Part shown: positions 1,827-46,848 of the stretch, piece by piece
Layout of the letters: each line of letters begins with the position of its first letter
How positions within the stretch are numbered: position 1 is the stretch's first letter
NCBI GenBank assembly: GCA_964366415.1
Contig: CAYITG010000001.1
Span: 650,195-714,194, forward strand
Reading direction: 5' to 3'
Length of the DNA: 64,000 nt
Source of the DNA: Candidatus Woesearchaeota archaeon
GTDB taxonomy: Archaea > Nanobdellota > Nanobdellia > SCGC-AAA011-G17 > UBA489
Translations under genes and position numbers: made by a program
The notes under the pieces: generated by a model
What the model saw: the letters and a program-made list of their open reading frames with translations, nothing else
Database searches by the model: none
What the model was told of the DNA's origin: nothing

Positions 1827-4800
1827 ATGACTTCATGGCGTGCAATACTCTTTGGAATTTTTTTTGTGATTTTGCTAGCTGGACTTCGTGATGTTGATGC
1901 ACAACAAAAAGTATGCTGCAGCGAAACTGTCAGCGGCAGTCATTGTGATTATGTTCCTGCTAATGAATGTCAACCTGGAGCATTGATGGCTGCGACTGCG
2001 TGCGAACAAACAAGTTTTTGCAAATTAGGATGCGGCTATGATCAAGGTTCTGGCAAATGCTTCAAAAATACTCCGAAATTTAACTGTGAACAGCAAGGAA
2101 ACTGCAGTTGGAGCGCGAGTTCGAGTTGTGATATTCCGCAATGTGGGAAGGGATGCTGTGTGTTGAGTAATGAATGCAGTTACATCACACAACTTCAATG
2201 TAAAAAAACTACTAGTTTGTATCCTGATGTTGAGATGACGTTTAAGGAAGAGATTACCAACGAACTTGATTGTGTCAATCAATGTCGCAGCTTTGAACGT
2301 GGAGCATGTGTTAAGCCAGATGGCAGTTGTACGTTTACTACTCGCGAAAGTTGTTCAGAAACTTCTACAACATTAAATGTGAGCGGACCTCTTGTTGGTT
2401 TTCATCCTGATAAATTATGCAGCCATCCACAGTTAGGAACAGAATGCGCATCACAACACACCACAGGATGTTTGCCTGATGGCGATGAAGTGCACTGGTT
2501 TGATAGTTGCGGAAATCCTGAAAATATTTATGATAGCAATAAAGTTCGAAGCTTCAATAATGGTTTTGTTTTGAGCAAAGATCAAAGTTGCAATGCTAAC
2601 AGCAACAATGTCAACAATCCTCAATGTGGTAACTGTAATTATCCTCAAGGAACTCTCTGCGGCGTTGCTGATAGAAGTGTTGATCCTGCTTTTGGGGATT
2701 ATGCTTGCGTTGATGTCAATTGCGGAATTGATGATATTACTCAAGATCCTTACAGCCCAGCTTCTACCTCTTCGAAAAAGTTTGGAGAAAGCTGGTGTGC
2801 TTATGATAGCGTGCCTGGAAGCGGACAAGATCCTGTTGGCAGCAGACAATATCGTCGCGTATGTATTAATGGACAAGAACTTACAGAAGATTGCAAAGAC
2901 TTTCGTGAAGAAATCTGCGTGCAAGGTGTAGCTGGACAACCGCCTCTTCCTACAGGGGCTTCTTTTCAAGTCAGTCAAGGATCATTTTTGAGTGCTGGAT
3001 GCCGTGACAACAGATGGCAGACGTGCGGTGATGCGAAGAATGAATTTGATTGCGTGAATGTGCAACAGCGAGATTGTATGTGGTATGGCGTTAGTTCATA
3101 TGGTAATAAACAACCTGGTAATCCTGATGCAGACACGAAAGCAAAAGCAAATAAAAAAGGGCAATGCGTTCCTTTTGTACCTCCTGGCTTGAAATTCTGG
3201 ACCGATGAAAGTGTTGGACAGACACCAACTGCTGATGCAACAGCAACATGCGCAAAAGCAAATTCAGAATGTACCGTCGTGTATGAGATTAGTGGATGGG
3301 GAGACAAGAAATGTGTCGCTAACTGCGACTGTAAAAAGAAAGAATGGTTGTTAGCACAAAATAGTGTTTGTGTTGCACAAGGAGATTGCGGAGCATGGGT
3401 GAACATTCGTGGCAAAGGAACGACGCATGGTTTTACTGTGAGTCCGAATCATGATTATACTTTGACTGGAAGCGACATTAATTCTTTTGGACAAACTGTT
3501 TTCTTGAAAGAACATGGTAAGGAGTATGACAATAAGTTTGGTGCTTTCTTCAAGAAATCTTGGATACCAACTGCATACTTTGCAACTGTTTATGTTTCTA
3601 CCGTAATTGCTACTGGTTGGGGTACTGCTGCTTCATCTATAGGATTAATCGAAGGAACTTGGTTAAGTGCGCTTGGGGCAAAAAATACTTTATTTTCTGA
3701 ACTTGAAAAAACAGCACTTAAAGAAGGAGGTAAATATGGATTTTCTAATATACGACTATTTGCATACATTAATACTCTTGCATGGATTTGGATGATCTAT
3801 AATCTTATTGATGTTGTCCTTGCTGATACTGAAGAAGATGTTTATAGTGTGCAATGTTTACCCTGGGTAGCACCTGTTGGCGGCGATGACTGTGAGAGTT
3901 GTGGCGATGATGGCAAGGAATGCAGCGAATATCGATGCAAGAGTTTGGGACAAGCGTGTAAACTTTTGAATCCTGGCACTGCAAAAGAAGTTTGCACCAA
4001 TGCGCATCCTAATGATGTTACGTCGCCCATTATTACTGCTGATCCGAGTGCGCTTGAACGTGGATACACCTTGAGTGAGAAAGCCAATGAAGGATATGTT
4101 GTCAATCCACAAGTTGAACCTTTCACTGCTGTCAGTTTAGGTATTAAAACAAATGAACCTTCGCAATGTAAGTTCAGTTTGAATCACTCGATGAGCTATG
4201 ATACCATCACAACGTTCTTTGGCGACAGCTTGTATGATTACAATCATAGCATGACCTTTTCCATCCCTGGAGAGCTTGCAGAGAACCCTGAAATCTTGAA
4301 ACTTACTAACGGCGGGCAATTCACGTTGTATGCCCGATGCCAAGATGGCAATGGCAATAAGAATGAACGTGATTATTACATTAAGTTTGCTGTGAAAAAA
4401 GGTCCAGACTTGACACCGCCCGTGATTGAAGCAACAGGCATTGCGAATGGAGCATATGTTCCTTCAGGCGTGAATTCCACTCCCTTTGTCATGTATGTCA
4501 ATGAACCTTCAGAATGTAAATGGGATGATCTTGATGCAGACTTTGCAAGCATGACGCATGGCTTTACGTGCAAGACACAAGGATTGCCAACATCAAGTTT
4601 ATTCTATGGATTGTATGAATGCGCAACTGTTCTTGACGATTTGGAATCGAACAAAAATAATGCATTTTATTTCAGATGCAAAGATCAACCTGGACAACCA
4701 GAATCAGAGAGAAATGTGAATGAGGAAAGCTATATTTATACTTTGAGAGGAACTGTGCCTTTAGAAATTACAAGCGTTAGTCCAACACAAGGCACGCAAC

Positions 4801-5282
4801 TTATGACGCAAGATCCAGAATTGAAAGTGATTACCTCTCGCGGAGCACAAAACGGTGTTGCTGTATGTGGCTATAGTTTTATTGACAACAGTTTTGGATC
4901 ATCTATTGAATTTGCCATTACGAATAGTACCGTTCATTCACAATTATTCAGCGATCTTAATCCTAGCTCTTACAATGCCTATATCAATTGTGTTGATGCG
5001 GCAGGAAACTTAGCGCAAGCCCAAACAAGTTTCAGCGTTTCGATTGATGCTGGAGGACCTGCTATTGCTCAGGTCTATACTGAAGGAAGTTTGTTGACTG
5101 TTGTGATGAATGAACCATCCACGTGTGAGTATAGCACGACAGGTTTCTTTACGTTCGGAAGCGGCGTGCAAATGACAGGACCCGACACATTTATTCATCA
5201 AGCTCCTTTGGACAGCGACATTTATTATCTTGTTTGTCAGGATAGCTTAAGTAATGAAGGACGCTACACGCTTTATGTGTAA
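1827..5282 (+). CDS. giant (1151 aa) secreted Cys-rich surface or adhesin-like protein with a C-terminal triple repeat module
   Basis: It has an N-terminal signal peptide (MTSWRAILFGIFFVILLAGLRDVDAQQ). Residues ~28-560 are extremely Cys-rich. Two hydrophobic segments sit at ~aa 578-612 and 642-666. The C-terminal ~360 aa are paralogous to ORF 2..1006 (DLTPPVIE; NEPSxC...YxRCxD motifs). An RBS AAGGAGA lies upstream. Confidence 0.6.
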   Translation: MTSWRAILFGIFFVILLAGLRDVDAQQKVCCSETVSGSHCDYVPANECQPGALMAATACEQTSFCKLGCGYDQGSGKCFKNTPKFNCEQQGNCSWSASSSCDIPQCGKGCCVLSNECSYITQLQCKKTTSLYPDVEMTFKEEITNELDCVNQCRSFERGACVKPDGSCTFTTRESCSETSTTLNVSGPLVGFHPDKLCSHPQLGTECASQHTTGCLPDGDEVHWFDSCGNPENIYDSNKVRSFNNGFVLSKDQSCNANSNNVNNPQCGNCNYPQGTLCGVADRSVDPAFGDYACVDVNCGIDDITQDPYSPASTSSKKFGESWCAYDSVPGSGQDPVGSRQYRRVCINGQELTEDCKDFREEICVQGVAGQPPLPTGASFQVSQGSFLSAGCRDNRWQTCGDAKNEFDCVNVQQRDCMWYGVSSYGNKQPGNPDADTKAKANKKGQCVPFVPPGLKFWTDESVGQTPTADATATCAKANSECTVVYEISGWGDKKCVANCDCKKKEWLLAQNSVCVAQGDCGAWVNIRGKGTTHGFTVSPNHDYTLTGSDINSFGQTVFLKEHGKEYDNKFGAFFKKSWIPTAYFATVYVSTVIATGWGTAASSIGLIEGTWLSALGAKNTLFSELEKTALKEGGKYGFSNIRLFAYINTLAWIWMIYNLIDVVLADTEEDVYSVQCLPWVAPVGGDDCESCGDDGKECSEYRCKSLGQACKLLNPGTAKEVCTNAHPNDVTSPIITADPSALERGYTLSEKANEGYVVNPQVEPFTAVSLGIKTNEPSQCKFSLNHSMSYDTITTFFGDSLYDYNHSMTFSIPGELAENPEILKLTNGGQFTLYARCQDGNGNKNERDYYIKFAVKKGPDLTPPVIEATGIANGAYVPSGVNSTPFVMYVNEPSECKWDDLDADFASMTHGFTCKTQGLPTSSLFYGLYECATVLDDLESNKNNAFYFRCKDQPGQPESERNVNEESYIYTLRGTVPLEITSVSPTQGTQLMTQDPELKVITSRGAQNGVAVCGYSFIDNSFGSSIEFAITNSTVHSQLFSDLNPSSYNAYINCVDAAGNLAQAQTSFSVSIDAGGPAIAQVYTEGSLLTVVMNEPSTCEYSTTGFFTFGSGVQMTGPDTFIHQAPLDSDIYYLVCQDSLSNEGRYTLYV

Positions 5283-5291
5283 GAGGCCGTC

Positions 5292-5789
5292 ATGATTCGT
5301 CTTCATAAAAAGGGAGTTGAGATGCAGGTTTTTACTTTTATTTTTGCCCTCATCTTAATTGTTTTCATCTTAGCTTATGGATTGCGAAGCATTTCCCGCA
5401 TACAAGGCGTGGGTGAAAATGTTGACCTGGGAGATTTTGTCTTTCGCTTGCGAGATCAGGTTGACATGATGGTTTCTTTTGAAATTGACAGCACGAAACA
5501 AGTGAAATTATTTTTACCTAACAAAGTGACACAAGTGTGCTTCTTCAATGGGGAGCACGAGATTACTTTGCATGATGATGACTTAGACCTTTATTTTGAG
5601 ACTAATTTAGGAAAAAATGTTTTTGTTGCACCTTTTTCATTTGCTCAGAATATTTTTTTGATTGAACATTTGCGACCTGACCATGCAGGAGATAACCCTC
5701 TTTGTTTTGCAACCAAAGGCGTTCTTCAGTTTACCTTGACCACTGTTTTAGGAGACGATGATAACATTTATGTAGAAGTCAGTCGTTGA
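5292..5789 (+). CDS. small pilin-like or signal-anchored secreted protein
   Basis: The N-terminus MIRLHKKG|VEMQVFTFIFALILIVFILAY has a basic stretch, Gly and a hydrophobic helix. It sits in the tight operon with other class III signal peptide proteins. Confidence 0.4.
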   Translation: MIRLHKKGVEMQVFTFIFALILIVFILAYGLRSISRIQGVGENVDLGDFVFRLRDQVDMMVSFEIDSTKQVKLFLPNKVTQVCFFNGEHEITLHDDDLDLYFETNLGKNVFVAPFSFAQNIFLIEHLRPDHAGDNPLCFATKGVLQFTLTTVLGDDDNIYVEVSR

Positions 5790-5796
5790 TGTCCTT

Positions 5797-6765
5797 ATGT
5801 TTTTTAAAAAAAAAGGGTTGAGCGGAGATCTTTTTACGTGGATTCTTGCTACCATCGCTGGCGTTTTTATCTTAGTCTTTTTTTATCGGTTTGCTACCCA
5901 ACATATTGATGTCAGCGAAGACTTGACCGATAGACAGACAGCCGAATACTTGATCGATGAACTTGATGCTTTCAGCACTGGAGAAAGTTCTACGAATTAT
6001 CTCAACTTTCGTACGCCCTTAGATGTGACGTTTCAGTGCGGTAGCGTTGGCTTCCGTGATTTTGCGAAAGATTTGGATAGACTTGTCTTTGCACCTTCAG
6101 AGATACATGATGATGAGATTGCGATGTGGACAGAAGTGTGGAAATTTCCTTTTCCCATTACTCCTGTATATTATCTTACTACAAAACGATCTCGCACCAT
6201 TATTATTTATGATGATCGCAGCGTTGATTTCATCCAGCGTCATTCTTTTCCTAGTACGATGGGCATTCAGAGCGTTCATATTAAGTCTCTTAAGCTTGAT
6301 CAACTTCGCCAACAGACCTCTGGACTTGACAGTCTTCATTTGATTTATCTTATTCCTGTACGCGATGTGAACATTATATCAGAAGCATTTCCTTCTTTGA
6401 AACCAGACATTCTTGAAGTAGATTTAGAGAAACATACGGTTCGCTATCACAACTATCGCATTGATGGCTTTTATTTAGGCGATGAGATGTTATATGGCGC
6501 ATTCTTTGCACCTGAACAATTTCCCTGCCTTCAACGCAAGGCTTTAGAACATCTTTGGCGAGCAGCTCACCTTCTGGAGCAACGCGCGCGATTATTACAA
6601 GGAAAAATAGCAGATCCTGCTTGCAGTGAGCTATTTTTCTCTTTGAGCACTGCTTATCATGGCTTCATTGGCGTTGATGATTATGATCTTCTCTATGAAC
6701 AGATGGAACGTGTTGATCAATATGATTCTTTACTTCAGCGACAGGGTTGTGGAGGAGCGTATTAA
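5797..6765 (+). CDS. pilin-like protein (class III signal peptide-like N-terminus)
   Basis: The N-terminus is MFFKKKG|LSGDLFTWILATIAGVFILVFF. It is tightly spaced in the operon. Confidence 0.45.
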   Translation: MFFKKKGLSGDLFTWILATIAGVFILVFFYRFATQHIDVSEDLTDRQTAEYLIDELDAFSTGESSTNYLNFRTPLDVTFQCGSVGFRDFAKDLDRLVFAPSEIHDDEIAMWTEVWKFPFPITPVYYLTTKRSRTIIIYDDRSVDFIQRHSFPSTMGIQSVHIKSLKLDQLRQQTSGLDSLHLIYLIPVRDVNIISEAFPSLKPDILEVDLEKHTVRYHNYRIDGFYLGDEMLYGAFFAPEQFPCLQRKALEHLWRAAHLLEQRARLLQGKIADPACSELFFSLSTAYHGFIGVDDYDLLYEQMERVDQYDSLLQRQGCGGAY

Positions 6766-7283
6766 TGAACAAACAAGGTCAGTTAGGAATGCAGGAAATC
6801 CTGTTGGTTACTTTCATCCTTGTTATTCTTTTCGTTCTTGGCTTAGTCCTTTATTTCAAATTTTCTTTGGCTCATGTTCAGACTATTGGAGAAACATTGA
6901 GTGAGCAAGAAACAACTATTCTTCTCTCTCGGATTCATTCTTTACCTGAATTACGCTGTCGAGATCGGGTTTGTTTAGACACGAGCAGGTTTATCCCTTT
7001 TCAAACTCTCACGCAGCGTCATCAGGAGTATTATGCAAATTTTTTAGGTTATAAGAAAATCGTTGTGACTCAACTGTATCCTGCGCCTGAAACACGTGAG
7101 CTATGCACTTTAACAACGTATGAACAAGATGCTTATCCTCAAAACTGCTTTTCTTGGACACTTTATGATCACAAACCTCAAAAGGTTCGCCAACAGATCA
7201 TTGTCCGGACCTTTGTTTCTTTATATTATCCTGAATTGGAAGAATATCGTCTTGGGGAGATTGAGGTGATTACGTATGCCTAA
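6765..7283 (+). CDS. pilin-like protein (class III signal peptide, Gln +1)
   Basis: The start was moved to the internal ATG that overlaps the upstream stop (TAATG). The N-terminus is MNKQG|QLGMQEILLVTFILVILFVLGLVLYF. Confidence 0.5.
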   Translation: MNKQGQLGMQEILLVTFILVILFVLGLVLYFKFSLAHVQTIGETLSEQETTILLSRIHSLPELRCRDRVCLDTSRFIPFQTLTQRHQEYYANFLGYKKIVVTQLYPAPETRELCTLTTYEQDAYPQNCFSWTLYDHKPQKVRQQIIVRTFVSLYYPELEEYRLGEIEVITYA

Positions 7284-7707
7284 GAAAGGGCAAGCAGAAG
7301 CTATGGGCATTTTGATTTTGCTTATTATTATACTCCTCTTGGCATTCCTGTACTTACGTTTCAGCTTGCGTGGCGACAACAAAGACTATGCCAGCGTGCG
7401 GGAAAGCATTGCCGCCCATGACCTTTTACGCGCATTACTTCAATTACATATTCGAGAAGAATCCTTCCAGGAACTCACTGTAGGTTGTTATTATGACTCT
7501 GCTTCTTGTGATCTTCTACGGCAACGTGTCAAGAGTATATTTACCAATATCTTTACTGGGCCAGAGACTTATCATCTTCTCTTGAAAGCAGAGGACCAGA
7601 CTCTCGTGGATGAAGGAACATGTTCCCAAGGCATTGTTGGACGGATCCCTTATACTGTTGATGGGGTTCTTTATGAGGGTATTTTGACGCTTTGCGGCCG
7701 TTCTTAG
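7276..7707 (+). CDS. pilin-like protein (class III signal peptide, Gln +1)
   Basis: An RBS GGAGGTGATT precedes the ATG. The N-terminus is MPKKG|QAEAMGILILLIIILLLAFLYL. Confidence 0.5.
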   Translation: MPKKGQAEAMGILILLIIILLLAFLYLRFSLRGDNKDYASVRESIAAHDLLRALLQLHIREESFQELTVGCYYDSASCDLLRQRVKSIFTNIFTGPETYHLLLKAEDQTLVDEGTCSQGIVGRIPYTVDGVLYEGILTLCGRS

Positions 7708-7957: not shown

Positions 7958-10639
7958 ATGCAAAGATTACGAAGAGCAGTTAAAAAAATAGCTGCTATTA
8001 GTGCAGGAGTTGCCATGCTTGGCGCTACTATGACGAGCGCAGTTGCATTGGATCTTGCAGATTACCCAGCACCATTCGTCACGGATGGTACATATAACAC
8101 GGACACAGCCGTTGTTGTGGGAAGAGATGCAGCAGCATCCGATACTATCGGAATTGCTAATGTTATCAAAGGCTTGCAATTTGAGAGCAAAGTCTGTACG
8201 CCAGGACAGTCTGTCGGTGGCGGAGTCAGTATTTCTGGAGATGCAGTTGAAATCTCAGACGCAAGTGACTTGCTTGAATTGCGAGAAAACATTGGAAGCG
8301 TACGCGAAACCATTACAGAAGTTGAATTAGATGGTTTAGCAGGTGGTTTGGTTACCACAAATGAAGGAACAACTGAGTTTAACCAATATTTGCGTTTTAG
8401 AAACACAGTTACTGGCGTCAACACTTTGACGAATTCCCCTTCTATAAACTTTACCGAGAATGATGCTCCTACTTCTGAAGTAGGCGACTACTTGGTCATT
8501 CGAGAAGGCTCAGCAGCAAACACTAGTTTCTTTGAATATGAATTGGAATTCGAAGATGGTTTGGAATCTGACATTGCTTCCAGTAAATTGGAAGATTTGG
8601 AAGATGAAGAACTTATCATCTTGGGAACTACATACACCTTTGTCGACACACGTGTTGACACTAGTGCAAATTCAGTCGAACTTGACATGTTAGGTGGAGC
8701 TGAATATGCAGTTTTGGAAGAAGGTGAAGTACGAACATTTACCATTGATGGTAAAGAGTACGAAGTTGAAGTTTTAATTATTGAGGACACCAATCCTCCT
8801 ACCGCAACTTTCAAGATCAACGGCGAGATCACAGATCAGCTTGTTGATGGTGAAACTGAAATCCTTAAGGATGGAACCTTAATTGGTATTTCTGACATCA
8901 TCTTGAATGAAGCTGGTGAAGCTGGATCTGGCGACTTAGTTGAACTCTTTGTTGGAGCTACAAAACTTCAATTAAAAGACACTAACTACAGTAATTCTGA
9001 AGTAGGAGCCGGCGGACCAACATTAGGTTACTTCCAAGGTGTTGAAATTGATGAAGAACCTATTGAAGATGCCTTTGTGCAAATTCAAGCTAATCTCATC
9101 TCAGCTACAGAGCTTGAGTTGTTGAGCATCAAGTACAGACTTTCCGCAGACGCCTTACCCGGTCAACGAGACATTTTTGTTGCAGCTGGCCACGGAGTTC
9201 GTGAATACCTAGACGAACCTCAGGGTATGCTAGGCTTTGATTGGGACATCCGTTACGAAGGGTTAGACGATGTTGGAGTATCCATCATCAAATTAGATCC
9301 TAGTGGCGATGATGAATACCAGATCGAAGTTGAAAATAAACAAGGAAAGGTTTACAAGTGGCCTTTAATTACCAATGAAGGTGGAACTTTCAAATATGGA
9401 GACAACAATGATGACTTCGTATGGATTGAAGGTTTTATCAATACCACTGCTGCGGCAAACAACTTAACTGGAAGCAAAGACGATGGAACTCCAGATATCT
9501 TTAACGTCGGTCGATTGGACTATTTTATCTTAAGTGACATGGACCGAGCGTTTGATGATACTGCTGTATCTCATATTTTGAGGTATAATTCTATCGATGT
9601 TGCATCTGCACAGTTGCAGTTTGATGACCTTGCAACTGGAAGCAAAGACTTCATCTATGAAGCTGCAGGAAAGCTTGACGCTCTTGGACGAGCTGACATC
9701 GTGATTGGTGGAAGTACTTATACACTTTACATCGCTAACGTGACAGCTGGATTAGCAGGAGACGCACCTTTAGCTATTGATGCGGATGGAGATGGCGTTT
9801 TTACTGAACGTCAAGTCATACGTTTCACCACTAACGGTGGAGGTATTTTGACTTTTGGTCGAAATGGTGCGGTAAGTGATGGAGCTAATGTCTCTGCGAC
9901 AGGTGCAGCTACACAGGCATCATCCATTGCTGCAGGAAATAGTATTGCTGGTAACACAGCTGCTACTTTTATGAACCTTACCACTCTTAGCGAAAATTTC
10001 GATGAGAATGGACCATCTGCAACTGGAGACCCACCAACAAATATCAATGAGGACTTGCAATTTGCAGTTCAGCAAAGAGCTAATAATAGAATTGGAATTA
10101 GCACTGCGGCCTCAAACTGGTCTTCATTAGGCGGTTTTGCCTTAGTCCAACCAGACGAAGACGATGACCACTACTATGGTATGACTGACTATGGTGCACT
10201 CGTTACATTGTTTGATCCTGAAGGAACAGATGATGCTGAAACAGTCACCATTGAGTATCCACTCATTCAACGTGGTGCTCGTGCATTCATTACCATGGGC
10301 GAGACTACTGCAACTAAGACTACTGCAGGCGAAGTTTGTACTGTTGCATCGATTGATGTGAATACATTATTCGATGATGAAGTTACAGACCCAACCATGT
10401 ATGATATGATCCTCGTTGGAGGACCATGTATCAACGATGCAGTTGAGAAAGTCCCAGGTTTAACAACTTGTGATGAATTCAGATCACAGTATGCACCTGG
10501 AGATGCAATTGTCCAATTGGTTGAGAATGGCGATCATGTTGCCATGCTTGTCTCTGGTTACAATGCAGAAGACACCTTAGCAGCTGCAAAAGCAGTTGAG
10601 AAGGGAACTGGCATCAGTGGTACCTTAGCCACCATCTAA
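7958..10639 (+). CDS. putative S-layer or major surface glycoprotein (893 aa, acidic)
   Basis: It has a signal peptide (MQRLRRAVKKIAAISAGVAMLGATMTSAVA). It is rich in Asp/Glu/Thr/Gly and carries many N-x-S/T sequons. It is a monocistronic unit with its own promoter region and a hairpin plus T-tract downstream. AglB lies 7 kb away. Confidence 0.55.
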   Translation: MQRLRRAVKKIAAISAGVAMLGATMTSAVALDLADYPAPFVTDGTYNTDTAVVVGRDAAASDTIGIANVIKGLQFESKVCTPGQSVGGGVSISGDAVEISDASDLLELRENIGSVRETITEVELDGLAGGLVTTNEGTTEFNQYLRFRNTVTGVNTLTNSPSINFTENDAPTSEVGDYLVIREGSAANTSFFEYELEFEDGLESDIASSKLEDLEDEELIILGTTYTFVDTRVDTSANSVELDMLGGAEYAVLEEGEVRTFTIDGKEYEVEVLIIEDTNPPTATFKINGEITDQLVDGETEILKDGTLIGISDIILNEAGEAGSGDLVELFVGATKLQLKDTNYSNSEVGAGGPTLGYFQGVEIDEEPIEDAFVQIQANLISATELELLSIKYRLSADALPGQRDIFVAAGHGVREYLDEPQGMLGFDWDIRYEGLDDVGVSIIKLDPSGDDEYQIEVENKQGKVYKWPLITNEGGTFKYGDNNDDFVWIEGFINTTAAANNLTGSKDDGTPDIFNVGRLDYFILSDMDRAFDDTAVSHILRYNSIDVASAQLQFDDLATGSKDFIYEAAGKLDALGRADIVIGGSTYTLYIANVTAGLAGDAPLAIDADGDGVFTERQVIRFTTNGGGILTFGRNGAVSDGANVSATGAATQASSIAAGNSIAGNTAATFMNLTTLSENFDENGPSATGDPPTNINEDLQFAVQQRANNRIGISTAASNWSSLGGFALVQPDEDDDHYYGMTDYGALVTLFDPEGTDDAETVTIEYPLIQRGARAFITMGETTATKTTAGEVCTVASIDVNTLFDDEVTDPTMYDMILVGGPCINDAVEKVPGLTTCDEFRSQYAPGDAIVQLVENGDHVAMLVSGYNAEDTLAAAKAVEKGTGISGTLATI

Positions 10640-10741: not shown

Positions 10742-11167
10742 ATGATTGTTGGATTTAATCTTACAAAAATTTTAGTTGAGCGTAAGAAACCCGTGCAAGG
10801 AAAGATCAAAGTCAATCACGATTTGCGCATTGACAATGTTGAACAACGACCCTTACCTCTTAAAGACAAAAAGAATGCTCTTATCTTTGAGTTTGTTTTT
10901 AATATTAACTATGAACCTGGCGTAGGCGAAGTCGCTTTACAAGGAAATGTTTTGTATTATGATGATCAGAAGAAGCTTGATGCTATTGCTCAGCAATGGA
11001 AAAAGACCAAAAAAGTTGCTCCAGAAGTTTCTGTTGAAGTCATTAATGTTATCTTTGCTCGCTGTAATATCCGTGCTTTGGAACTTAGTCAAGAACTTAA
11101 CTTACCTGCACATCTTCCTTTACCTCAGATTAATCTGAAAGAAGATCCTAGTAAATACATTGGTTAA
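10742..11167 (+). CDS. hypothetical cytoplasmic protein
   Basis: ORF with an RBS (AAGGTGATG) and no recognisable motifs. Confidence 0.45.
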   Translation: MIVGFNLTKILVERKKPVQGKIKVNHDLRIDNVEQRPLPLKDKKNALIFEFVFNINYEPGVGEVALQGNVLYYDDQKKLDAIAQQWKKTKKVAPEVSVEVINVIFARCNIRALELSQELNLPAHLPLPQINLKEDPSKYIG

Positions 11168-11766
11168 TGTTTTCTATGAAAACTCGAGCTTCTCCAGGAG
11201 AGCAACGTGAGACCAAGAAGCTCTTTCTACCACTTTTTATTGCTACCATTCTTATCATGAGTACGTTTGGTATTATTCTTGGTGGATTTTCCTCTGAAGA
11301 ATCAACAACCACTCAAGGAGAGAATATTGGTGGCGCTTACTTCAGCCTTTCTAATGGCCGATGGATTGTTCAGGGCAGCGGATATACTTTGAATTTGCAG
11401 TATGGTCCTGAAGCTCTTCGCGCTGTTGAACCTATTGATGTTAACTCTTTACGTCAAGTCTCTAAAGTTTATATTAGTTACAAAAGCGGAGAGAATACTT
11501 TAAATGCGATTCCTGACTTTTATCAAAATATGAAACAATTTGTTAAAGTGACTCCAGCTTGCGTGGAAGATGGATCTGGATGCGAAGAACTTCCCTTAAA
11601 GACTTGCGCAGATGCAGATTCTTCTGTTGGCGTTGTTATGATCACTCTTTCTTCTGAACAACATATTACTCAAGAAGGAACATGTATCCACATTCAAGGT
11701 GATGCAGAATATATTACTGCTGTTGTTGACAGAATTCTTTTGACTTATGTTGGAGTTACTTTATGA
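11167..11766 (+). CDS. membrane-anchored hypothetical protein
   Basis: It has an N-terminal signal anchor. Its C-terminal motif DRILLTYVGV is shared with the next ORF, so the two are paralogs. Confidence 0.45.
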   Translation: MFSMKTRASPGEQRETKKLFLPLFIATILIMSTFGIILGGFSSEESTTTQGENIGGAYFSLSNGRWIVQGSGYTLNLQYGPEALRAVEPIDVNSLRQVSKVYISYKSGENTLNAIPDFYQNMKQFVKVTPACVEDGSGCEELPLKTCADADSSVGVVMITLSSEQHITQEGTCIHIQGDAEYITAVVDRILLTYVGVTL

Positions 11767-12368
11767 AACCTCATGAAAAACAGCTCATGATTATTTTTGT
11801 CATTCTTGGGATTTTATTTCTTGGTCTGATTGGTGGCATTATGTATTATAAAAAAGAATATCAAAAAAGTTATTTTACCTATCGTGGTTTTGACTTCAAA
11901 CAAGTTGCTGGAGGATATCAGATTACAGTCTATATCAATGAACAACAGATTCCACGCACACTTACTTTACGGTCAGACCCTCGTGACATCGAAGATATTC
12001 CTGTCGAGACAGACGTACGTTCCTTAATAAAAAAGAAAGAGATCTTCGTAACGATTAATCCTTATGATAATCTTACCGGGCTCACCACCATGGCAGTGTT
12101 AGAACTTGATAAAGTTTTAGATAATCCTAATTTGTATAACATTCCTTTGAATGCTTCTTTTACAGAACTTTATCCAAAAGGAGGATTAAGCGTGAAGACA
12201 TGTGTTGATGCTACTCCCGATATCGCTGTCTTATGGTTTAAACTTGAAGAACGCACGCGCATTTATGAGAATGAGGGATGTATTATTATTGCTGGAGAAC
12301 AAGAGGAAGATCTTGTTGAGGTCGCGGATAGAATTATTTATACACTCTTGGGCATTATGGATTCCTGA
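11763..12368 (+). CDS. membrane-anchored hypothetical protein (paralog of 11167..11766)
   Basis: It has an N-terminal TM helix, a 4-nt overlap with the upstream gene, and a conserved C-terminal motif ADRIIYTLLGI. Confidence 0.45.
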   Translation: MKPHEKQLMIIFVILGILFLGLIGGIMYYKKEYQKSYFTYRGFDFKQVAGGYQITVYINEQQIPRTLTLRSDPRDIEDIPVETDVRSLIKKKEIFVTINPYDNLTGLTTMAVLELDKVLDNPNLYNIPLNASFTELYPKGGLSVKTCVDATPDIAVLWFKLEERTRIYENEGCIIIAGEQEEDLVEVADRIIYTLLGIMDS

Positions 12369-16542: not shown

Positions 16543-17409
16543 ATGGTTTTGGAATCCTTAACCACTCCTCAAAAAGCAGAAAAGAGCCCGTGGGATCTCA
16601 TTTTTATTGGCGCCATGTATGCGGCCATTGGCGTATTCTTATCTATTTGGGTGTTTAAGGAAGAAGCGAGCATCGTGATGGTGTTATTAACTGTCATTGC
16701 TACAGTGCCCCTCGTGTTTAATACCATGCAATATGAAGAAAGCAAGGACATGGTTATTGCAAAAGAGCGAGCGCTCTTACGTGAACATGCCAAAGCTCTG
16801 ACTTTTTTTACCTTTATGTTTATGGGTTTTGTTTTTGCCTTTTCTTTTGCTTATATCTTTCTACCAGAAGAGCTTGTTACCGATATTTTTGACGCGCAAC
16901 TTAGCACTATTCAAAATATCAACAGCAAAGTTTCAGGAAGTGGTAGCTTAGAAGGTTCTTCTGTCGGTGGAACATTATTCTTACAAATTCTGGCTAATAA
17001 CTTGAAAGTTTTACTTTTTTGTTTATTTTTTGCTTTCTTCTATGGCGCTGGAGCCATGTTCATCCTCATTTGGAATGCATCAGTTATTAGCGCTGCCATT
17101 GGCACTTTTTTCAGGGACCACATCAGCGAATATGTCAGCCAGATTGGTTTTGCTAAGATTGCCGGCTATTTTCATATCTTTTCGTTAAGTTTATTAAGGT
17201 ACTTTATCCATGGAATCCCAGAAATCCTTGGATATTTCATCGGGGGGTTAGCAGGAGGAATCATTTCAGTTGCAGTGATTCGACATGATTTTGGCACACC
17301 ACTTTTCAATCGCATTTTGGTTGATAGTATGTATCTGATTATGTTGGCTATATTTGTTCTTGTCATTGCAGCGCTCATTGAAGTGTTTGTCACTCCTCTT
17401 TTCTTTTAA
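16543..17409 (+). CDS. SpoIIM/DUF95-like integral membrane protein
   Basis: It is a multi-TM protein with a central motif ILANNLKV...FYGAGAMFILIWNASVI that resembles stage II sporulation protein M family proteins. Confidence 0.4.
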   Translation: MVLESLTTPQKAEKSPWDLIFIGAMYAAIGVFLSIWVFKEEASIVMVLLTVIATVPLVFNTMQYEESKDMVIAKERALLREHAKALTFFTFMFMGFVFAFSFAYIFLPEELVTDIFDAQLSTIQNINSKVSGSGSLEGSSVGGTLFLQILANNLKVLLFCLFFAFFYGAGAMFILIWNASVISAAIGTFFRDHISEYVSQIGFAKIAGYFHIFSLSLLRYFIHGIPEILGYFIGGLAGGIISVAVIRHDFGTPLFNRILVDSMYLIMLAIFVLVIAALIEVFVTPLFF

Positions 17410-17410
17410 T

Positions 17411-20029
17411 ATGGAAACAGCTACAACTTTGGAACAGCGAAAACAGAAGCTTCTCTCTTTTTTTACTCAGAGAAAAAATCTTTTAGTTTACGTTGGCTTA
17501 TTTTTCATTCTTCTTTTAAGTTATATCATGCGTATACGTAACTTGCCCCTCTTGAAAGATGTGACGACTGGAAATTATATTCCTGTAGAACTTGATTCTT
17601 TTGCTTTCTTACGTTATGCACAATATATTCTAGAACATGGGCATATTATGGATTTTGATCTTATGCGTTATTATCCTAATGGATATTATCCTGCAAATGA
17701 ATTTTCTTTTGTTTCCCATTTTATTGTGTGGTTGTATAAATTTTTGCACATGTTTAATTCCAACCTCACTTTAGAGTATGTAGATGCTATTTATCCACCT
17801 CTCGCTTTTGTTGTTGGATTAATTTTCTTTTTCCTTCTTGTTCGCCGCCTTTTTGACTGGCGTGTTGCTCTTTTGGGTAGCGCATTCCTTGCCGTTATTC
17901 CTCCCTATATCTATCGCACTATGGCAGGATTTTCTGATAAGGAAGCATTAGGAATGATGTTTTTCTTTGTATCCTTGTATTTATTCACTGCTTCTTGGCA
18001 AACATCTTCTCTCAAAAAATCCCTCTCTCTTGCTGCTCTTTCAGGGATTATGACTGCACTTATGGCACTCTCTTGGGGGGGAGTTTACTTTGTTTTTCTT
18101 ACTATAGGACTCTATGCCCTTTATATGGTTGTTTTTGACTATTTTACTCCAAAAGAATATTATGATTATGCCACGTGGTGTATTTTTTCTATTCTTTTCT
18201 CGACGGTTGTTTTTACCACTAGATTTACTCTTTCCGGAGCGTTTAATTCCCTCCTCTTTATTCCTTTAAACTTGGCTCTTGTTGTCGGATTCTTTCGCTA
18301 TCTTATTTTACGTTATAACTTCTTTAATCTGCAACACCGCTTCCAAAAATTCTTTCCCTTAGGCATTACTACTGCGATCATCTCTTCACTTCTTATTTTA
18401 CTTCTTTTTGTCTCTACACATGGTTTCCAAAGTCTTTTTTACCGCGTACAAGATTTTATCACGAGCATTTTAACACCTTACGCTGCTAGCCGTTGGGGTG
18501 TTACTGTAGCTGAGAGCCATCAACCTTACATTAGCGATTGGTTTTCTCAATTTGGCAATTTTTATTTTTGGACATTCCTGATTGGCGTTTTACTTTTTGT
18601 TTTTTACACTTTTATTGTACGACTTAAACATCGCCTCCTTATCACTTCCGGATATGTCATTTTTCTTGTTTTCTTCCTCATGAGCAGATACTCTTCTCAA
18701 CCTCCATTTGATGGTGTTTCATCTTTAGCACGCCTTTTCTATTTTGGTTCTCTTCTCTTTTTTGTAGCCGGACTTCTTTTTATTTATTGGTACAGCTATA
18801 AACATCATAAGGAGTTATACTCTCAACTCTTTTCTTTGAAAAAAGAATATATCTTTGTTTTTGTATGGCTTTTTGTTCAACTTGTCACTGCACGCCTTGC
18901 TATTCGACTCCTTTTTGTTTTTGCTCCTCTTACTGCAATTATTGTAGCATTTCTTTATGTTAAAATCTATGATCTTTCTCGTTCCATCCCTTCAACCTTT
19001 GCTCGTTACGCTTTTGTCCTCGCTGTCGTTTATCTCTTATTTTCTCCTTTTGTTTCTATAAGCCTGGTTTCTTATTACCAACAAGATTTACGAACAGTGG
19101 GTTATAGTGGGCCGGCATATACTCAACAATGGCAAATTGCTATGGACTGGGTGAGAAAGAACACTCCTGAGGATGCCGTATTCGCTCATTGGTGGGACTA
19201 TGGATACTGGGTTCAGGGCGGCGGACAACGAGCCACGCTTACTGATGGTGGAAACTCAGGAGGTCCGGCATTAAATCATTTTATGGGGCGTAATGTTATT
19301 ACTGGAGCTAACTCAACAGAGGCCCTTGAATTCTTGAAAGTAAAGAAAGCAACACATCTCTTGATTATTTCTGATGAAATCGGCAAGTACGGCGCTTTTT
19401 CAAGCATCGGCTCTAACCAGACTTATGACCGTTTTTCTGTCATTCCCACTTTTACTCTTTCTCCATCAGAAAGTAAGGAACAACGTGATCAAACACTTTT
19501 TGTCTATCGTGGTTCTGCCGCATTTGATGAAGACATTTACTTTGATGGACAACTGTTCCCTGCACGCAGCTCAGGCATTGCTGCCATTATGGTTCCTATC
19601 TCTGTCAAAGATAACCGCACCAGCATCCAGCAACCTCGAGCAGTTGTTGTTTACCAAAATCAACAATATTCTATTCCTCTGAAATGTGTTTTTGTGGACC
19701 GCAAAGAAATCGTTTTCCCTGAACCAGGGATACGAGCATGCCTCCAGATTATTCCTGCTATCGAAGGAAATTCTGTCAATGTTCTTGGGGGAGGATTATA
19801 TCTTTCACAAAAAGTTTGGAACACACTCTTTACCCACATGTACCTCTTCGACCAGAAATGGGAAGGATTTACTTTAGCCTATACTGACGAACAATCTGTG
19901 CCTCTTGCCTTATATAATGGTCGAACTTTTGGGCCTCTTAAAATTTGGAGCATTACTTATCCTGATTCTATTCCCTATAACCCTCATTATGAAGAACTTG
20001 AATTAGATGCTTCTTTATCTTTAGTTTGA
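17411..20029 (+). CDS. aglB: oligosaccharyltransferase AglB (STT3 family)
   Basis: The N-terminal ~13 TM region is followed by a soluble C-terminal domain carrying the catalytic WWDYGYW motif. The start was moved to the internal ATG (METATT...) to avoid overlap with the upstream gene. Confidence 0.85.
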   Translation: METATTLEQRKQKLLSFFTQRKNLLVYVGLFFILLLSYIMRIRNLPLLKDVTTGNYIPVELDSFAFLRYAQYILEHGHIMDFDLMRYYPNGYYPANEFSFVSHFIVWLYKFLHMFNSNLTLEYVDAIYPPLAFVVGLIFFFLLVRRLFDWRVALLGSAFLAVIPPYIYRTMAGFSDKEALGMMFFFVSLYLFTASWQTSSLKKSLSLAALSGIMTALMALSWGGVYFVFLTIGLYALYMVVFDYFTPKEYYDYATWCIFSILFSTVVFTTRFTLSGAFNSLLFIPLNLALVVGFFRYLILRYNFFNLQHRFQKFFPLGITTAIISSLLILLLFVSTHGFQSLFYRVQDFITSILTPYAASRWGVTVAESHQPYISDWFSQFGNFYFWTFLIGVLLFVFYTFIVRLKHRLLITSGYVIFLVFFLMSRYSSQPPFDGVSSLARLFYFGSLLFFVAGLLFIYWYSYKHHKELYSQLFSLKKEYIFVFVWLFVQLVTARLAIRLLFVFAPLTAIIVAFLYVKIYDLSRSIPSTFARYAFVLAVVYLLFSPFVSISLVSYYQQDLRTVGYSGPAYTQQWQIAMDWVRKNTPEDAVFAHWWDYGYWVQGGGQRATLTDGGNSGGPALNHFMGRNVITGANSTEALEFLKVKKATHLLIISDEIGKYGAFSSIGSNQTYDRFSVIPTFTLSPSESKEQRDQTLFVYRGSAAFDEDIYFDGQLFPARSSGIAAIMVPISVKDNRTSIQQPRAVVVYQNQQYSIPLKCVFVDRKEIVFPEPGIRACLQIIPAIEGNSVNVLGGGLYLSQKVWNTLFTHMYLFDQKWEGFTLAYTDEQSVPLALYNGRTFGPLKIWSITYPDSIPYNPHYEELELDASLSLV

Positions 20030-44518: not shown

Positions 44519-45349
44519 ATGAATATGCTTTTCCGTCGGCCACATGAGAGCAATTCAAAGATTAAGAACTTTTTTTATAGAACCTTTGGAGTCCCTCATG
44601 TGGGCACGCGGTTGAGGGGCCGTGCTGTTTTTTCACTTTTTCCTCATTCAAAAAAACCCCTATGTATACTGGATATAGGATGCGGGGCAGCTTATTTCTC
44701 TTATGAACTACAAAAACACGGACACCATGTTACAAGTCTCGATTCGTTAAAGGGTATGAACAAAGAAGACATCAAAAAATTTGAAACTATCTTCAAGAAA
44801 GGTGGACAAACTTTTCATTTTGTCGAGGGAAATGCAACACATTTGCCTTTTCCAGAAAAATCTTTTGATGTCATTATTATTGCTGATGTGATAGAGCATA
44901 TTGATGATGAAGATAAAGTGATGAAAGAGATACGTCGTGTCTTGAAACCTCAAGGATACTTTATCGCATCTACGCCAGCCACAGGGTTTCATCGTGGAAA
45001 ATTCAAACGTTTTTTCAGATTTTTACATCAACACACTTTCCTCAGGACGCTCCCTTTTTGGGACACTGTTCAGCTGTACCCTGAAAGCCATATGAAATCC
45101 GAAGGGCATCTTCGAGAATATTCTCTTGCATATTGGAAACTGCTTTGCAAACAACACCATTTTTCTTTAGAAGATTGGACATATGAATACAAACTCTTTA
45201 GCGCATTTTTTGTAGAATTATACCACACTTTTGCTTTTATTGATCGCTATGGCAATTATCTTTTTCCGTTCATGTACCCTTTTACCTTTCTTGATTCTCT
45301 CCTACCAATTAAAGGAACTGGCATCGCTATCCGTGCAAGAAAAATTTGA
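44519..45349 (+). CDS. class I SAM-dependent methyltransferase
   Basis: Motif I is ILDIGCGAAYFS and the acidic motif is IIIADVIEHIDD. Confidence 0.75.
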   Translation: MNMLFRRPHESNSKIKNFFYRTFGVPHVGTRLRGRAVFSLFPHSKKPLCILDIGCGAAYFSYELQKHGHHVTSLDSLKGMNKEDIKKFETIFKKGGQTFHFVEGNATHLPFPEKSFDVIIIADVIEHIDDEDKVMKEIRRVLKPQGYFIASTPATGFHRGKFKRFFRFLHQHTFLRTLPFWDTVQLYPESHMKSEGHLREYSLAYWKLLCKQHHFSLEDWTYEYKLFSAFFVELYHTFAFIDRYGNYLFPFMYPFTFLDSLLPIKGTGIAIRARKI

Positions 45350-46848
45350 AACGTTTTATTTATAAACTATCTTTCTCTCTTTTGCTCATGCTTCGTGCGA
45401 CCTTGAAAGGAACATTGTACATCACTTTTAGTTTAGCTCTTGTTAAGTTACTTTCTTTAGTTTATACTTCCATGATAGCTCGCGCTTTAGGGCCAGAAGG
45501 ATTAGGCGCTTTGAATTTAGCCATGCTAATGGTTCCTTGGTTCATTGCAGGCTCCTCTTTCTCCTTGCAAACTGTTGCCACACAAGTCATTGCTTCATTC
45601 AAATCGCGAAAACTCGATATTATACCTGTCATGCGCGGCCTCTTTCTCTTAACTTTTCTTTCTGGATTAGGCGCAACTTTGCTTCATTTTTTTGTCTCTC
45701 CTTTTGTTGCACGATTCTTTTTTCATGATGATCATTTAGCATGGCCCATTGCCTTGGCTTCTCTTATTATCCTTTTTTCTGTGTTGTACAATGTTCTCTT
45801 AGGCGTCGAGCGCGGATTGAAACGCTTTAGATCTTACGCTTTTCTCGAATTCCTTAAACAGATCTTTCTTGTTGTTGCCACTTTTTGCTTTATTGTTTAT
45901 TTTGGTTATGGAGTCAAAGGAGCTCTCTATGCCCTGATTTTTTCTCCAGCTCTTGTCATTTTTCTCTATCTTCTTCGTCATCGTCGATTATTTGCGCATG
46001 GTGCTGTGAATAAGGAAGGGATGCTTTCTTTTGGTTTTTCCCTGACCTTTGTAGGATTACTTCTCTCTTTGTTTTTATCCCTTGATCGATTTATCTTGGG
46101 ATTTTTACAATCTCAAGAAACTGTTGGTTACTACGCTGCGAGTTTGACTCTTCTTAATTTAGGTTTTTATTTTGTTGGTGGAATAAAAAATACGGCTTTT
46201 CCATTTTTGTCTGAAAAATTTTCTCAAACAAAAAACCTCAGTGATCATCGCGTTATTGACTATTTTTCTAAGATCACCACTTATACTCTTCTTTTTATTG
46301 GTGTTATCATGATAGGCCTCATGATGTTTCGTCATGAACTCATTTTTTTAATTTTTGGCAGTGATTATTATCTTTCCATTGACCTTTTGATGATTATGAT
46401 TTTTTCTCTTCCTTTTTTGACTCTTTACATTCTTATTCACACTTTGTCTATCAGCATTCAACGTATTCGTGAAGCAACTCTTGCTAGCGCCATAGCACTC
46501 ATTGTTGGGGTCGTTATCTTTTATATTTTTACTCGCACTTGGAATGTGACTGGAACTGCTTATGCTCTTGTCGTGAGTTCTATGATTCTTAGCATTTTTT
46601 ATTATATTCTTACTATGACGTCTGTTAGAATTCGCTTTGCACCTGTTTTTTTCGTTGTTTTATACGTTACTCTTTTTACCTTTGCCCTCTCTTTTGTAGA
46701 AGGTTCTTTTTTGTTTCGCGTGTTTATTTTCCTCTTTGCTCATCTTGTTTATCTATTACTTTCTCTTCTTTTTCGATTTATTGAATGGGCAGAACTTCTT
46801 TTTGCTTTCTCGAGAATCTCTGCTTATTTTCGCTCTTTCATACGATAA
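45346..46848 (+). CDS. MOP-superfamily polysaccharide flippase (Wzx-like)
   Basis: It is 500 aa with ~12-14 TM segments. The N-terminus has the flippase-typical ...MIARALGPEGLGALNLAM. Confidence 0.6.
   Translation: MKRFIYKLSFSLLLMLRATLKGTLYITFSLALVKLLSLVYTSMIARALGPEGLGALNLAMLMVPWFIAGSSFSLQTVATQVIASFKSRKLDIIPVMRGLFLLTFLSGLGATLLHFFVSPFVARFFFHDDHLAWPIALASLIILFSVLYNVLLGVERGLKRFRSYAFLEFLKQIFLVVATFCFIVYFGYGVKGALYALIFSPALVIFLYLLRHRRLFAHGAVNKEGMLSFGFSLTFVGLLLSLFLSLDRFILGFLQSQETVGYYAASLTLLNLGFYFVGGIKNTAFPFLSEKFSQTKNLSDHRVIDYFSKITTYTLLFIGVIMIGLMMFRHELIFLIFGSDYYLSIDLLMIMIFSLPFLTLYILIHTLSISIQRIREATLASAIALIVGVVIFYIFTRTWNVTGTAYALVVSSMILSIFYYILTMTSVRIRFAPVFFVVLYVTLFTFALSFVEGSFLFRVFIFLFAHLVYLLLSLLFRFIEWAELLFAFSRISAYFRSFIR

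Follow-up and report, generated by a model that had tools for sequence, protein, structure and literature searches.

A giant disulfide-rich surface protein of a Woesearchaeota archaeon belongs to a conserved A/B pair in an envelope operon with pilin-like and S-layer genes

The open reading frame (ORF) at positions 1827-5282 (forward strand) of a 64,000-nucleotide stretch of DNA from a Candidatus Woesearchaeota archaeon (contig CAYITG010000001.1, positions 650,195 to 714,194; the window) encodes a giant surface protein of 1151 amino acids (aa), here called the B giant. We hold with high confidence that the B giant is a secreted, disulfide-stapled and partly glycosylated surface protein, that it is one member of a pair of giants (A and B), and that its gene lies in a conserved envelope operon restricted to a Woesearchaeota/Pacearchaeota-type lineage of DPANN archaea. 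It is best read as part of a conserved complex of the envelope that would act in recognition or adhesion, a function to which its architecture and genomic context point. The open frame is genuine, and an identical protein (P0001) is on record for the ORF, on contigs of up to 814 kb. The parts of the B giant, in window coordinates, are listed below; the structural assignments come from an AlphaFold2 (AF2) model, with confidence given as the predicted local distance difference test (pLDDT) score, and immunoglobulin is shortened to Ig.

1827-1901, + strand: Sec-type signal peptide, aa 1-25, with a hydrophobic N-terminal helix at aa 2-18 and a putative cleavage site between ...VDA and QQ
1902-3461, + strand: N-terminal Cys-rich ectodomain (head, or N-domain), aa 26-545, 47 Cys, without a relative among solved structures
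3534-3638, + strand: central helix 1, aa 570-604, Gly/Ala/Thr-rich and semi-hydrophobic, in AF2 as helices 570-577, 579-596 and 598-604
3639-3746, + strand: central loop, aa 605-640, hypervariable, sequon-free and net acidic, pLDDT <50
3747-3818, + strand: central helix 2, aa 641-664, a helix in AF2, consensus motif N..xW.Y.IY.L.D
3825-4031, + strand: seven-Cys module after helix 2, aa 667-735, Cys at 677-723
4059-4400, + strand: Ig-like module M1, aa 745-858, NEPSQC ... YARCQDGNGN, all-beta in AF2
4401-4751, + strand: Ig-like module M2, aa 859-975, NEPSEC ... YFRCKDQPGQ, 4 Cys
4752-5051, + strand: Ig-like module M3, aa 976-1075, without NEP, YINCVDAAGN, Big_13-like (16.6 bits)
5052-5279, + strand: Ig-like module M4, aa 1076-1151, NEPSTC ... 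YYLVCQDSLSN

The B giant contains 64 Cys, 47 of them within aa 30-521, and Cys accounts for 9.0% of its N-domain as compared with 0.94% of 17 other window proteins. The Cys wealth and the CC, CxxC and CGxGCC patterns described in the initial annotation were confirmed (CC at 30/31 and 110/111, CGKGCC at 106-111, CGNC at 267, CESC at 689). In an alignment of 105 homologs, nearly every invariant column was a Cys; the pattern is therefore a conserved framework and not a product of chance. Cys totals per family protein were usually even, at about 60-69. A role of the cysteines in binding haem or iron-sulfur cofactors was considered and rejected, as CxxCH is absent and just two CxxC occur, in a protein with a signal peptide and a conserved, usually even Cys count.

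Modelled alone (aa 26-565, with 105 homologs), the head reached a pLDDT of 89.8 and a predicted template modelling (pTM) score of 0.72; for the full-length AF2 model of the B giant the pLDDT was 84.6. A Foldseek search of the head model against the PDB gave zero matches at E<=1e-3 (best E 1.3), and searches of the head against Pfam, NCBIfam and PDB sequences were all empty. A known fold for the Cys-rich region, which the initial annotation had allowed for, thus did not emerge from Pfam, NCBIfam, the PDB or Foldseek. The complete B protein matched PDB chains by sequence at noise level only (Muscleblind zinc finger, E 0.35), and an NCBIfam scan of the giant, its paralog and eight neighbours yielded nothing meaningful. 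The head fold is confidently predicted and is unmatched among solved structures, the comparison having been made with the PDB.

Conservation of the head is not limited to Cys. Seventy-one non-Cys columns are kept at >=90% over the whole head, and conservation peaks at aa 191-380 with 42 such columns. The motifs DSCGNPE, GSRHYR and KDFREEIC are kept in both the A and B paralogs, and the invariant polar residues of the patch are D226, N230, E232, D335, S339, D358 and R360; His341 is near-invariant across the family but is Gln in this B protein. At aa 27-185, mini-repeats in the form of CC-x-C-x-C hairpins were compared by hhalign. One pair was significant (104-135 versus 155-185, 95.8%), while the remaining pairs in this segment had no significant similarity.

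Between the head and the C-terminal modules, the initial annotation had noticed two hydrophobic stretches and proposed that they form a membrane hairpin. The stretches are indeed there, as AF2 helices at 570-604 and 641-664, though they are weak, with 19-aa Kyte-Doolittle maxima (KD19) of 1.29 for helix 1 and 1.53 for helix 2. On a Hessa-type scale, the approximate insertion energies (dG) of the two were +4.0 and +4.8 kcal/mol, versus 0.3 kcal/mol for the signal peptide across the family, whereas globular segments always lay at >=5.5 (median 10). The two segments of the B giant are thus probably not hydrophobic enough to insert, while those of the A paralog are (KD up to 3.25).

The loop between the helices was informative on topology. 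It varies from 30 to 440 aa in homologs and over the family is net acidic (K+R 1033, D+E 1369). In the variable loop of the 105 members, only 4 glycosylation sequons (N-x-S/T) were observed, whereas local-block shuffles predict 70 ± 7 (z -9; 16-fold depletion), and the whole central region was free of sequons in 101/105 members. Control motifs in the loop occurred at expectation (S/T-x-N 65 vs 68, Q-x-S/T 81 vs 84), and sequons were depleted neither in 27 cytoplasmic enzymes of the window (28 observed vs 35 ± 5 expected) nor in the S-layer protein. Archaeal N-glycosylation by AglB/STT3 takes place on the outer face of the membrane, and an STT3 gene is present in the window; selection against sequons therefore argues for a loop exposed on the outside. 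In one homolog (P0110) the central loop houses an entire LysM domain (30.9 bits against a cut-off of 20.9) beside a 12-Cys insert. Five other long-loop homologs carry 10-14 Cys in the loop, the inserts being even-numbered, and a Pfam scan of seven long-loop homologs found no loop domain besides this LysM. The acidic charge, the sequon depletion and the inserts of the homologs do not fit a cytoplasmic loop. We conclude that the central loop of the B giant is probably extracellular, which makes it doubtful that this protein has a classical transmembrane (TM) hairpin whose loop faces the cytoplasm; the hairpin originally proposed fits instead the strongly hydrophobic A paralog. In homolog pairs with heads >=60% identical, identity was 63-71% in the scaffold, 36% in the central helices and 23% in the loop, where 50% of the columns were indels.

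The Cys counts bear on the same question. The N-domain number is odd in most family proteins (47 here, 43 in the A paralog), and the module after helix 2, the most conserved segment of all (0.67), has 7 Cys in 176/206 family proteins. An odd N-domain together with a seven-Cys module suggests that one disulfide joins the two, which would place both ectodomains on the same side of the membrane. The earlier proposal that both large domains lie outside the cell is supported, even though the hairpin once invoked for it is doubtful in the B giant.

The head itself was also poor in sequons, with an N-x-S/T ratio of 0.39 and a reversed-motif control of 0.97. In the same part of the family alignment (window 1902-3461), where N-x-S/T fell to 0.39, Q-x-S/T was enriched 1.41-fold (z +9.8). 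To judge from the alignment, it looks as if Asn in sequon context had been systematically swapped for Gln, avoiding glycosylation. In the C-terminal Ig string, sequons were not specifically depleted (0.83 vs 0.71 for the reversed motif).

The C-terminal region consists of four modules that are mutually homologous (hhalign of family sub-alignments, probabilities 93.7-97.9%, E 2e-7 to 4e-13; M1 vs M2, M3 and M4 96-98%). Three copies had been counted initially because the third module lacks the NEP motif. NEPxxC occurs at aa 776, 892 and 1095, and the Y..C.D..GN-type motif at about 835, 948, 1052 and 1133. In the AF2 model each module has 5-7 strands with a pLDDT of about 90, and the top Foldseek matches in the PDB were all tandem Ig/FN3/cadherin strings (E 6e-14 to 1e-8). 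The Pfam family Big_13 (PF19077) matched the B giant with 16.6 bits (E 0.011), below the gathering score of 27, and the paralog fragment with 25.7 bits; on the corresponding module of homologs it scored 27.4, 27.9, 29.1, 36.8 and 38.4 bits. In a family-wide Pfam scan of 38 members, Big_13 was matched by 31 at E<=0.01, with the match confined to positions of about 63-102 of the profile hidden Markov model (HMM), and the Ig-like DUF4625 and Y_Y_Y were also found. The modules are thus divergent Ig-like domains of the Big_13 type, each marked by a conserved Cys pair peculiar to the family, and are ordinary members of a known domain class. Of the suggestion that it is a novel beta-sandwich repeat, the beta-sandwich was borne out by AF2 and Foldseek, while the novelty was lost once profile searches placed the modules in the Ig-like Big_13 family, in some homologs above threshold.

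Upstream of the B giant, and cut by the start of the window, lies its A-type paralog:

2-1006, + strand: A-type paralog, C-terminal 334 aa of a full protein of 1083 aa with 60 Cys

The fragment is 39% identical to aa 824-1143 of the B giant (E 7e-61) and contains the repeat strings that the initial annotation had quoted from it, so the repeats are indeed common to both ORFs. On its native contig (L001), the full A paralog is homologous to B from end to end (32% identity, E 9e-174). Its central hairpin is strongly hydrophobic with a short turn (KD19 up to 3.25). In 36 adjacent A/B pairs the median KD19 was 2.47 for A versus 1.77 for B, and the central KD19 was >=2.0 in 24/34 A members. By this hydrophobicity, the hairpin reading holds for the A paralog. 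Three giant-family genes in a row were observed in two places, the P0110 locus (L003; 1324 + 1167 + 1405 aa) and the contig of P0120 (1285 + 1359 + 1548 aa), so that a triplet can take the place of the pair. At another locus the block of A giant, g274 and B giant occurs twice (L041:6099-13822 and L041:14345-22068), the two copies agreeing exactly in ORF lengths, in Cys counts and in BLAST scores; the repetition (~8.2 kb) either arose by recent tandem duplication or is an artefact of the assembly.

The pair is embedded in an operon with the order A giant, g274, B giant, g165, g322, g172, g143, S-layer gene (PF05124), g141, g199 and g201, which recurs in distant genomes. The neighbours that accompany the giants are the following:

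999-1823, + strand: g274, pilin-like, class III-type N-terminus ...KRRGQ followed by a hydrophobic helix; 53/58 orthologs class III-like
5292-5789, + strand: g165, pilin-like, class III-like N-terminus in 30/35 orthologs
5797-6765, + strand: g322, pilin-like, class III-like N-terminus in 32/36 orthologs
6765-7283, + strand: g172, pilin-like, class III-like in 21/36 orthologs by a strict filter, [KR]GQ common
7276-7707, + strand: g143, pilin-like, MPKKGQ..., class III-like in 15/22 orthologs
7958-10639, + strand: S-layer protein (S_layer_C, PF05124; Pfam E 7e-9)

A class III signal was defined as a short charged N-terminus, [KR]-G-[Q/L/V...] and then about 20 hydrophobic residues. All five small neighbours carry it, and in three control families of the operon class III-like N-termini numbered 0-1. 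A g274-like gene adjoins the giants in 68/75 loci. The S-layer gene lies downstream in 26/33 loci (those with >=7 kb of flank), and the S-layer protein is without an anchor of its own. In some Pacearchaeota-type loci, a single giant is flanked on both sides by g274. The small genes g274, g165, g322, g172 and g143 had no relative in the PDB, Pfam or NCBIfam, and ortholog profiles of g274 and g322 found nothing in the PDB or Pfam. A FlaI/PilB-type ATPase, a TadC/FlaJ platform and a PibD/FlaK peptidase were found neither in the 64-kb window nor in four further neighbourhoods, save for two T2SSF/TadC genes about 8 kb downstream in the contig of one homolog.

The operon sits among housekeeping genes, with PCNA, an RNA polymerase subunit and TFS upstream and a ribosomal operon also nearby, and the downstream remainder of the window (about 50 kb) is a glycosylation island. 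Positions 12500-64000 are mostly one very large envelope glycosylation/polysaccharide island, containing STT3/AglB (about 17354-20029), more than 12 glycosyltransferases (GT2, GT4, GT9), three Polysacc_synt flippases and several PMT_2 genes, along with sugar epimerases and dehydrogenases, a carbamoyltransferase and five B12-binding radical SAM enzymes. A look-up of the window ORF 45346-46848 yielded no record. The three small genes g141, g199 and g201, which follow the S-layer gene in conserved order, occupy 10742-12368; g141 is soluble and signal-free, and g199 and g201 are paralogous and N-terminally anchored, without the class III motif. They might correspond to a DPANN-specific secreted protein next to arCOG02487 (the NEQ255 cluster, PMC6393860). 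Just upstream of the window, before the A giant, L001:5093-5866 encodes a secreted protein of 257 aa that contains 8 Cys and matches DUF1554 weakly; it is outside the conserved core, being present in 1/75 other loci.

The family is large. We found more than 250 homologs of the B giant and 330 relatives in species-representative genomes, and an exhaustive phmmer search with the head alone brought the family to at least 1,384 clusters when grouped at 50% identity, of which 1,089 had E<=1e-10. The head domain was always N-terminal, in proteins of roughly 1100-1350 aa. All but one of the 75 inspected loci came from genomes titled Woesearchaeota, Nanoarchaeia, Nanoarchaeota, Pacearchaeota or simply archaeon, and the family appears confined to Woesearchaeales/Pacearchaeales-type DPANN archaea. 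A 379-kb contig titled 'Candidatus Paceibacterota bacterium' (L079, DAOTCN010000002.1) carries two giants, a g165-like gene and an S-layer (PF05124-type) match in the archaeal operon order, and is probably a Pacearchaeota genome mislabelled by confusion of names. A description of the giant family was not found in the literature. Papers on archaeal 'dark matter' mention neighbouring families only, namely the S-layer-type arCOG02487 and an adjoining DPANN secreted protein, NEQ255 (PMC6393860, PMC5898192), and the NEQ255-type protein of these papers could not be linked to any gene at the locus. Nanoarchaeal pilins were not identified by a survey of archaeal type IV pili (T4P; PMC4858521).

From these results we propose, at a probability of roughly 0.45, that the A and B giants form a complex with the pilin-like proteins that is anchored in the membrane, spaced by the Ig string and equipped with a glycan-free head and loop for recognition or adhesion. 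The whole mature B chain would lie outside the cell, and the disulfide between N-domain and seven-Cys module would close the central element into an exposed loop. The hold on the membrane may be provided by the hydrophobic hairpin of the A paralog, by the N-terminal helices of the pilin-like partners, or by both. The glycosylated Ig string would serve as a spacer in the S-layer space, and the glycan-free head together with the variable glycan-free loop, which in some species bears LysM or Cys-rich inserts, would present a recognition or adhesion surface toward a host cell or another substrate. Several points weigh against this proposal. Adhesion or recognition is a function that we infer from architecture and context, in a family with no characterised homolog, and sequon depletion proves selection against glycosylation but by itself not a binding function. 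LysM was found within the loop of one homolog only, and 20/105 B-type members have two segments of KD>=1.6, which leaves room for the helices to insert into the membrane. The head is strongly conserved in its non-Cys columns and the operon lies among housekeeping genes, and a constitutive structural role fits these two facts at least as well as host recognition does. A more far-reaching version, in which the A and B giants and the five pilin-like proteins are an unrecognised organelle of Woesearchaeales/Pacearchaeales, seems unlikely but is not far-fetched; here A would be the anchor, the ancestral membrane hairpin of B would have become an exposed, hypervariable and deliberately glycan-free tip touching the host envelope, where it binds glycans (as LysM hints) or inserts into membrane, and the head would be a new fold.

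Two other explanations, each rather improbable, address how the giants are held and what they carry. If the central segments of B formed a true TM hairpin with a cytoplasmic loop, as the initial annotation had it, the protein would be an integral-membrane structural anchor, such as an S-layer stalk, with both ectodomains outside. The clear hydrophobicity of the homologous A segment, the AF2 helices of 35 and 24 residues, central segments far more hydrophobic than the globular parts (approximate dG 4 vs a median of 10), the 20/105 B members with two segments of KD>=1.6 and the conserved S-layer neighbour without an anchor all speak for it. The insertion energy of about +4 kcal/mol, as compared with 0.3 for the signal peptide, speaks against it, as do a loop that breaks the positive-inside rule, the sequon-specific 16-fold depletion of that loop while cytoplasmic enzymes are undepleted, and the LysM and even-numbered Cys-rich inserts of homologs. 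The giants may alternatively serve as the large adhesins of a fibre or tip complex that resembles a type IV pilus, with the five pilin-like proteins as carriers and the ATPase and platform encoded elsewhere. Consistent with this, the operon holds five conserved class III-type proteins, g274 is paired with each giant gene, the sizes of the pilin-like proteins (143-322 aa) resemble minor-pilin sets, and T2SSF/TadC genes lie near one homolog. Archaeal T4P loci include a large signal-peptide 'adhesin or minor pilin' and S-layer-like proteins (PMC4858521), and DPANN archaea possess type IV filament (TFF) system 1, which includes two genes for platform proteins (bioRxiv 10.64898/2026.04.22.720090). 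However, with that one T2SSF exception, ATPase, TadC and prepilin peptidase are absent from the window and the other inspected neighbourhoods, the giants bear a Sec and not a class III signal, a PilY1-type domain is absent by Pfam from the B giant and 38 homologs, and a major pilin is not evident.

The remaining two explanations concern what the exposed parts do, and both are much less probable. We regard it as very unlikely that the helices, Gly/Ala-rich and free of glycans, act as a hairpin for fusion or pore formation that on contact inserts into a host membrane and aids a cytoplasmic bridge between DPANN archaeon and host. The helices are semi-hydrophobic and rich in Gly, Ala and Thr, sequons are strictly absent around them, the scaffold is disulfide-locked, and the Woesearchaeota-type lineage is thought to be host-dependent; but at 36% identity versus about 65% for the scaffold the helices are poorly conserved, unlike fusion peptides, and both a C-terminal anchor and the architecture of class I, II or III fusogens are absent. 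The least probable is that the head patch at aa 191-380 is an enzymatic or ligand-processing site, acting for example on envelope glycans, instead of an adhesion surface. This segment has the densest invariant polar residues of the protein (the 42 non-Cys columns at >=90%), its motifs DSCGNPE, GSRHYR and KDFREEIC occur in both paralogs, and a large glycosylation island adjoins the gene. Yet no similarity to an enzyme fold or family was found in Pfam, NCBIfam or by Foldseek against the PDB, the near-invariant His341 is Gln in this protein, and a patch of this sort would be just as typical of a Ca2+ site or of an interface between proteins.

Woesearchaeota and Pacearchaeota rank among the most abundant uncultivated DPANN archaea of groundwater and sediments. 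A large lineage-specific family with a fixed A/B pair, in an operon with S-layer and pilin-like genes, is a concrete candidate for a core part of their surface apparatus. Neither Pfam, NCBIfam, the PDB nor the literature yielded a description of the head of the giants or of the five pilin-like genes. The repeat that was noticed first turned out to be ordinary. The head offers a confidently modelled, disulfide-rich domain of 520 residues without a solved relative. Sequon depletion offers a cheap, testable prediction of topology and shows how, in organisms that N-glycosylate, metagenomic alignments can reveal the orientation of a protein in the membrane.

Comparison with known systems places the individual parts of the giants and their operon at different distances from what has been described. 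The C-terminal modules share with Big_13 Ig-like domains (PF19077; related to the E-set DUF4625, PF15418, and Y_Y_Y, PF07495) the seven-strand beta-sandwich ending in Y-x-x-x-D-x-x-G-N. They differ in that the B giant stays under the threshold (16.6 vs 27 bits), with a match to the C-terminal third of the HMM only, and in their family-specific NEPxxC ... YxxCxD Cys pair, which may correspond to the disulfide between strands B and F of Ig-like folds. From the archaeal Fusexin1/HAP2 class II fusogens the giants differ by their domain order and the lack of a C-terminal anchor, and the B giant is not a member of this class. The SlaB stalk of Sulfolobales is likewise a membrane-associated string of beta-sandwiches beside an S-layer gene, and B and A could similarly span the pseudo-periplasm. 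SlaB, however, is anchored by a TM helix at its C-terminus, contains a coiled coil and lacks a Cys-rich head, and homology was not detected; in the giants the hydrophobic element is central, and the A paralog alone resembles a true anchor. PilY1/PilC with its minor pilins offers a functional analogy, a protein of ~1100 aa inside a set of 4-5 small pilin-like genes. The giants nevertheless have no sequence or fold similarity to it, and carry a Sec signal, and their assembly on a fibre is hypothetical; neither the Neisseria_PilC beta-propeller nor vWA was matched by Pfam in the B giant or 38 homologs, whose C-terminus is Ig-like.

Among known kinds of locus, the operon comes closest to those associated with archaeal T4P (Makarova et al., 2016, PMC4858521), in which a cluster of class III-signal proteins is likewise accompanied by large secreted Ig proteins and an S-layer(-like) gene, and conserved Cys-rich components have been reported for the T4P systems of Thermoproteales (PMC4858521). 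The neighbourhood of the giants differs in lacking the ATPase, TadC and peptidase, and in its specific A/B pair, its unmatched head and its central hairpin or loop; Woese- and Pacearchaeales lay outside that survey. The giant operon may be regarded as a variant of this known kind of locus.

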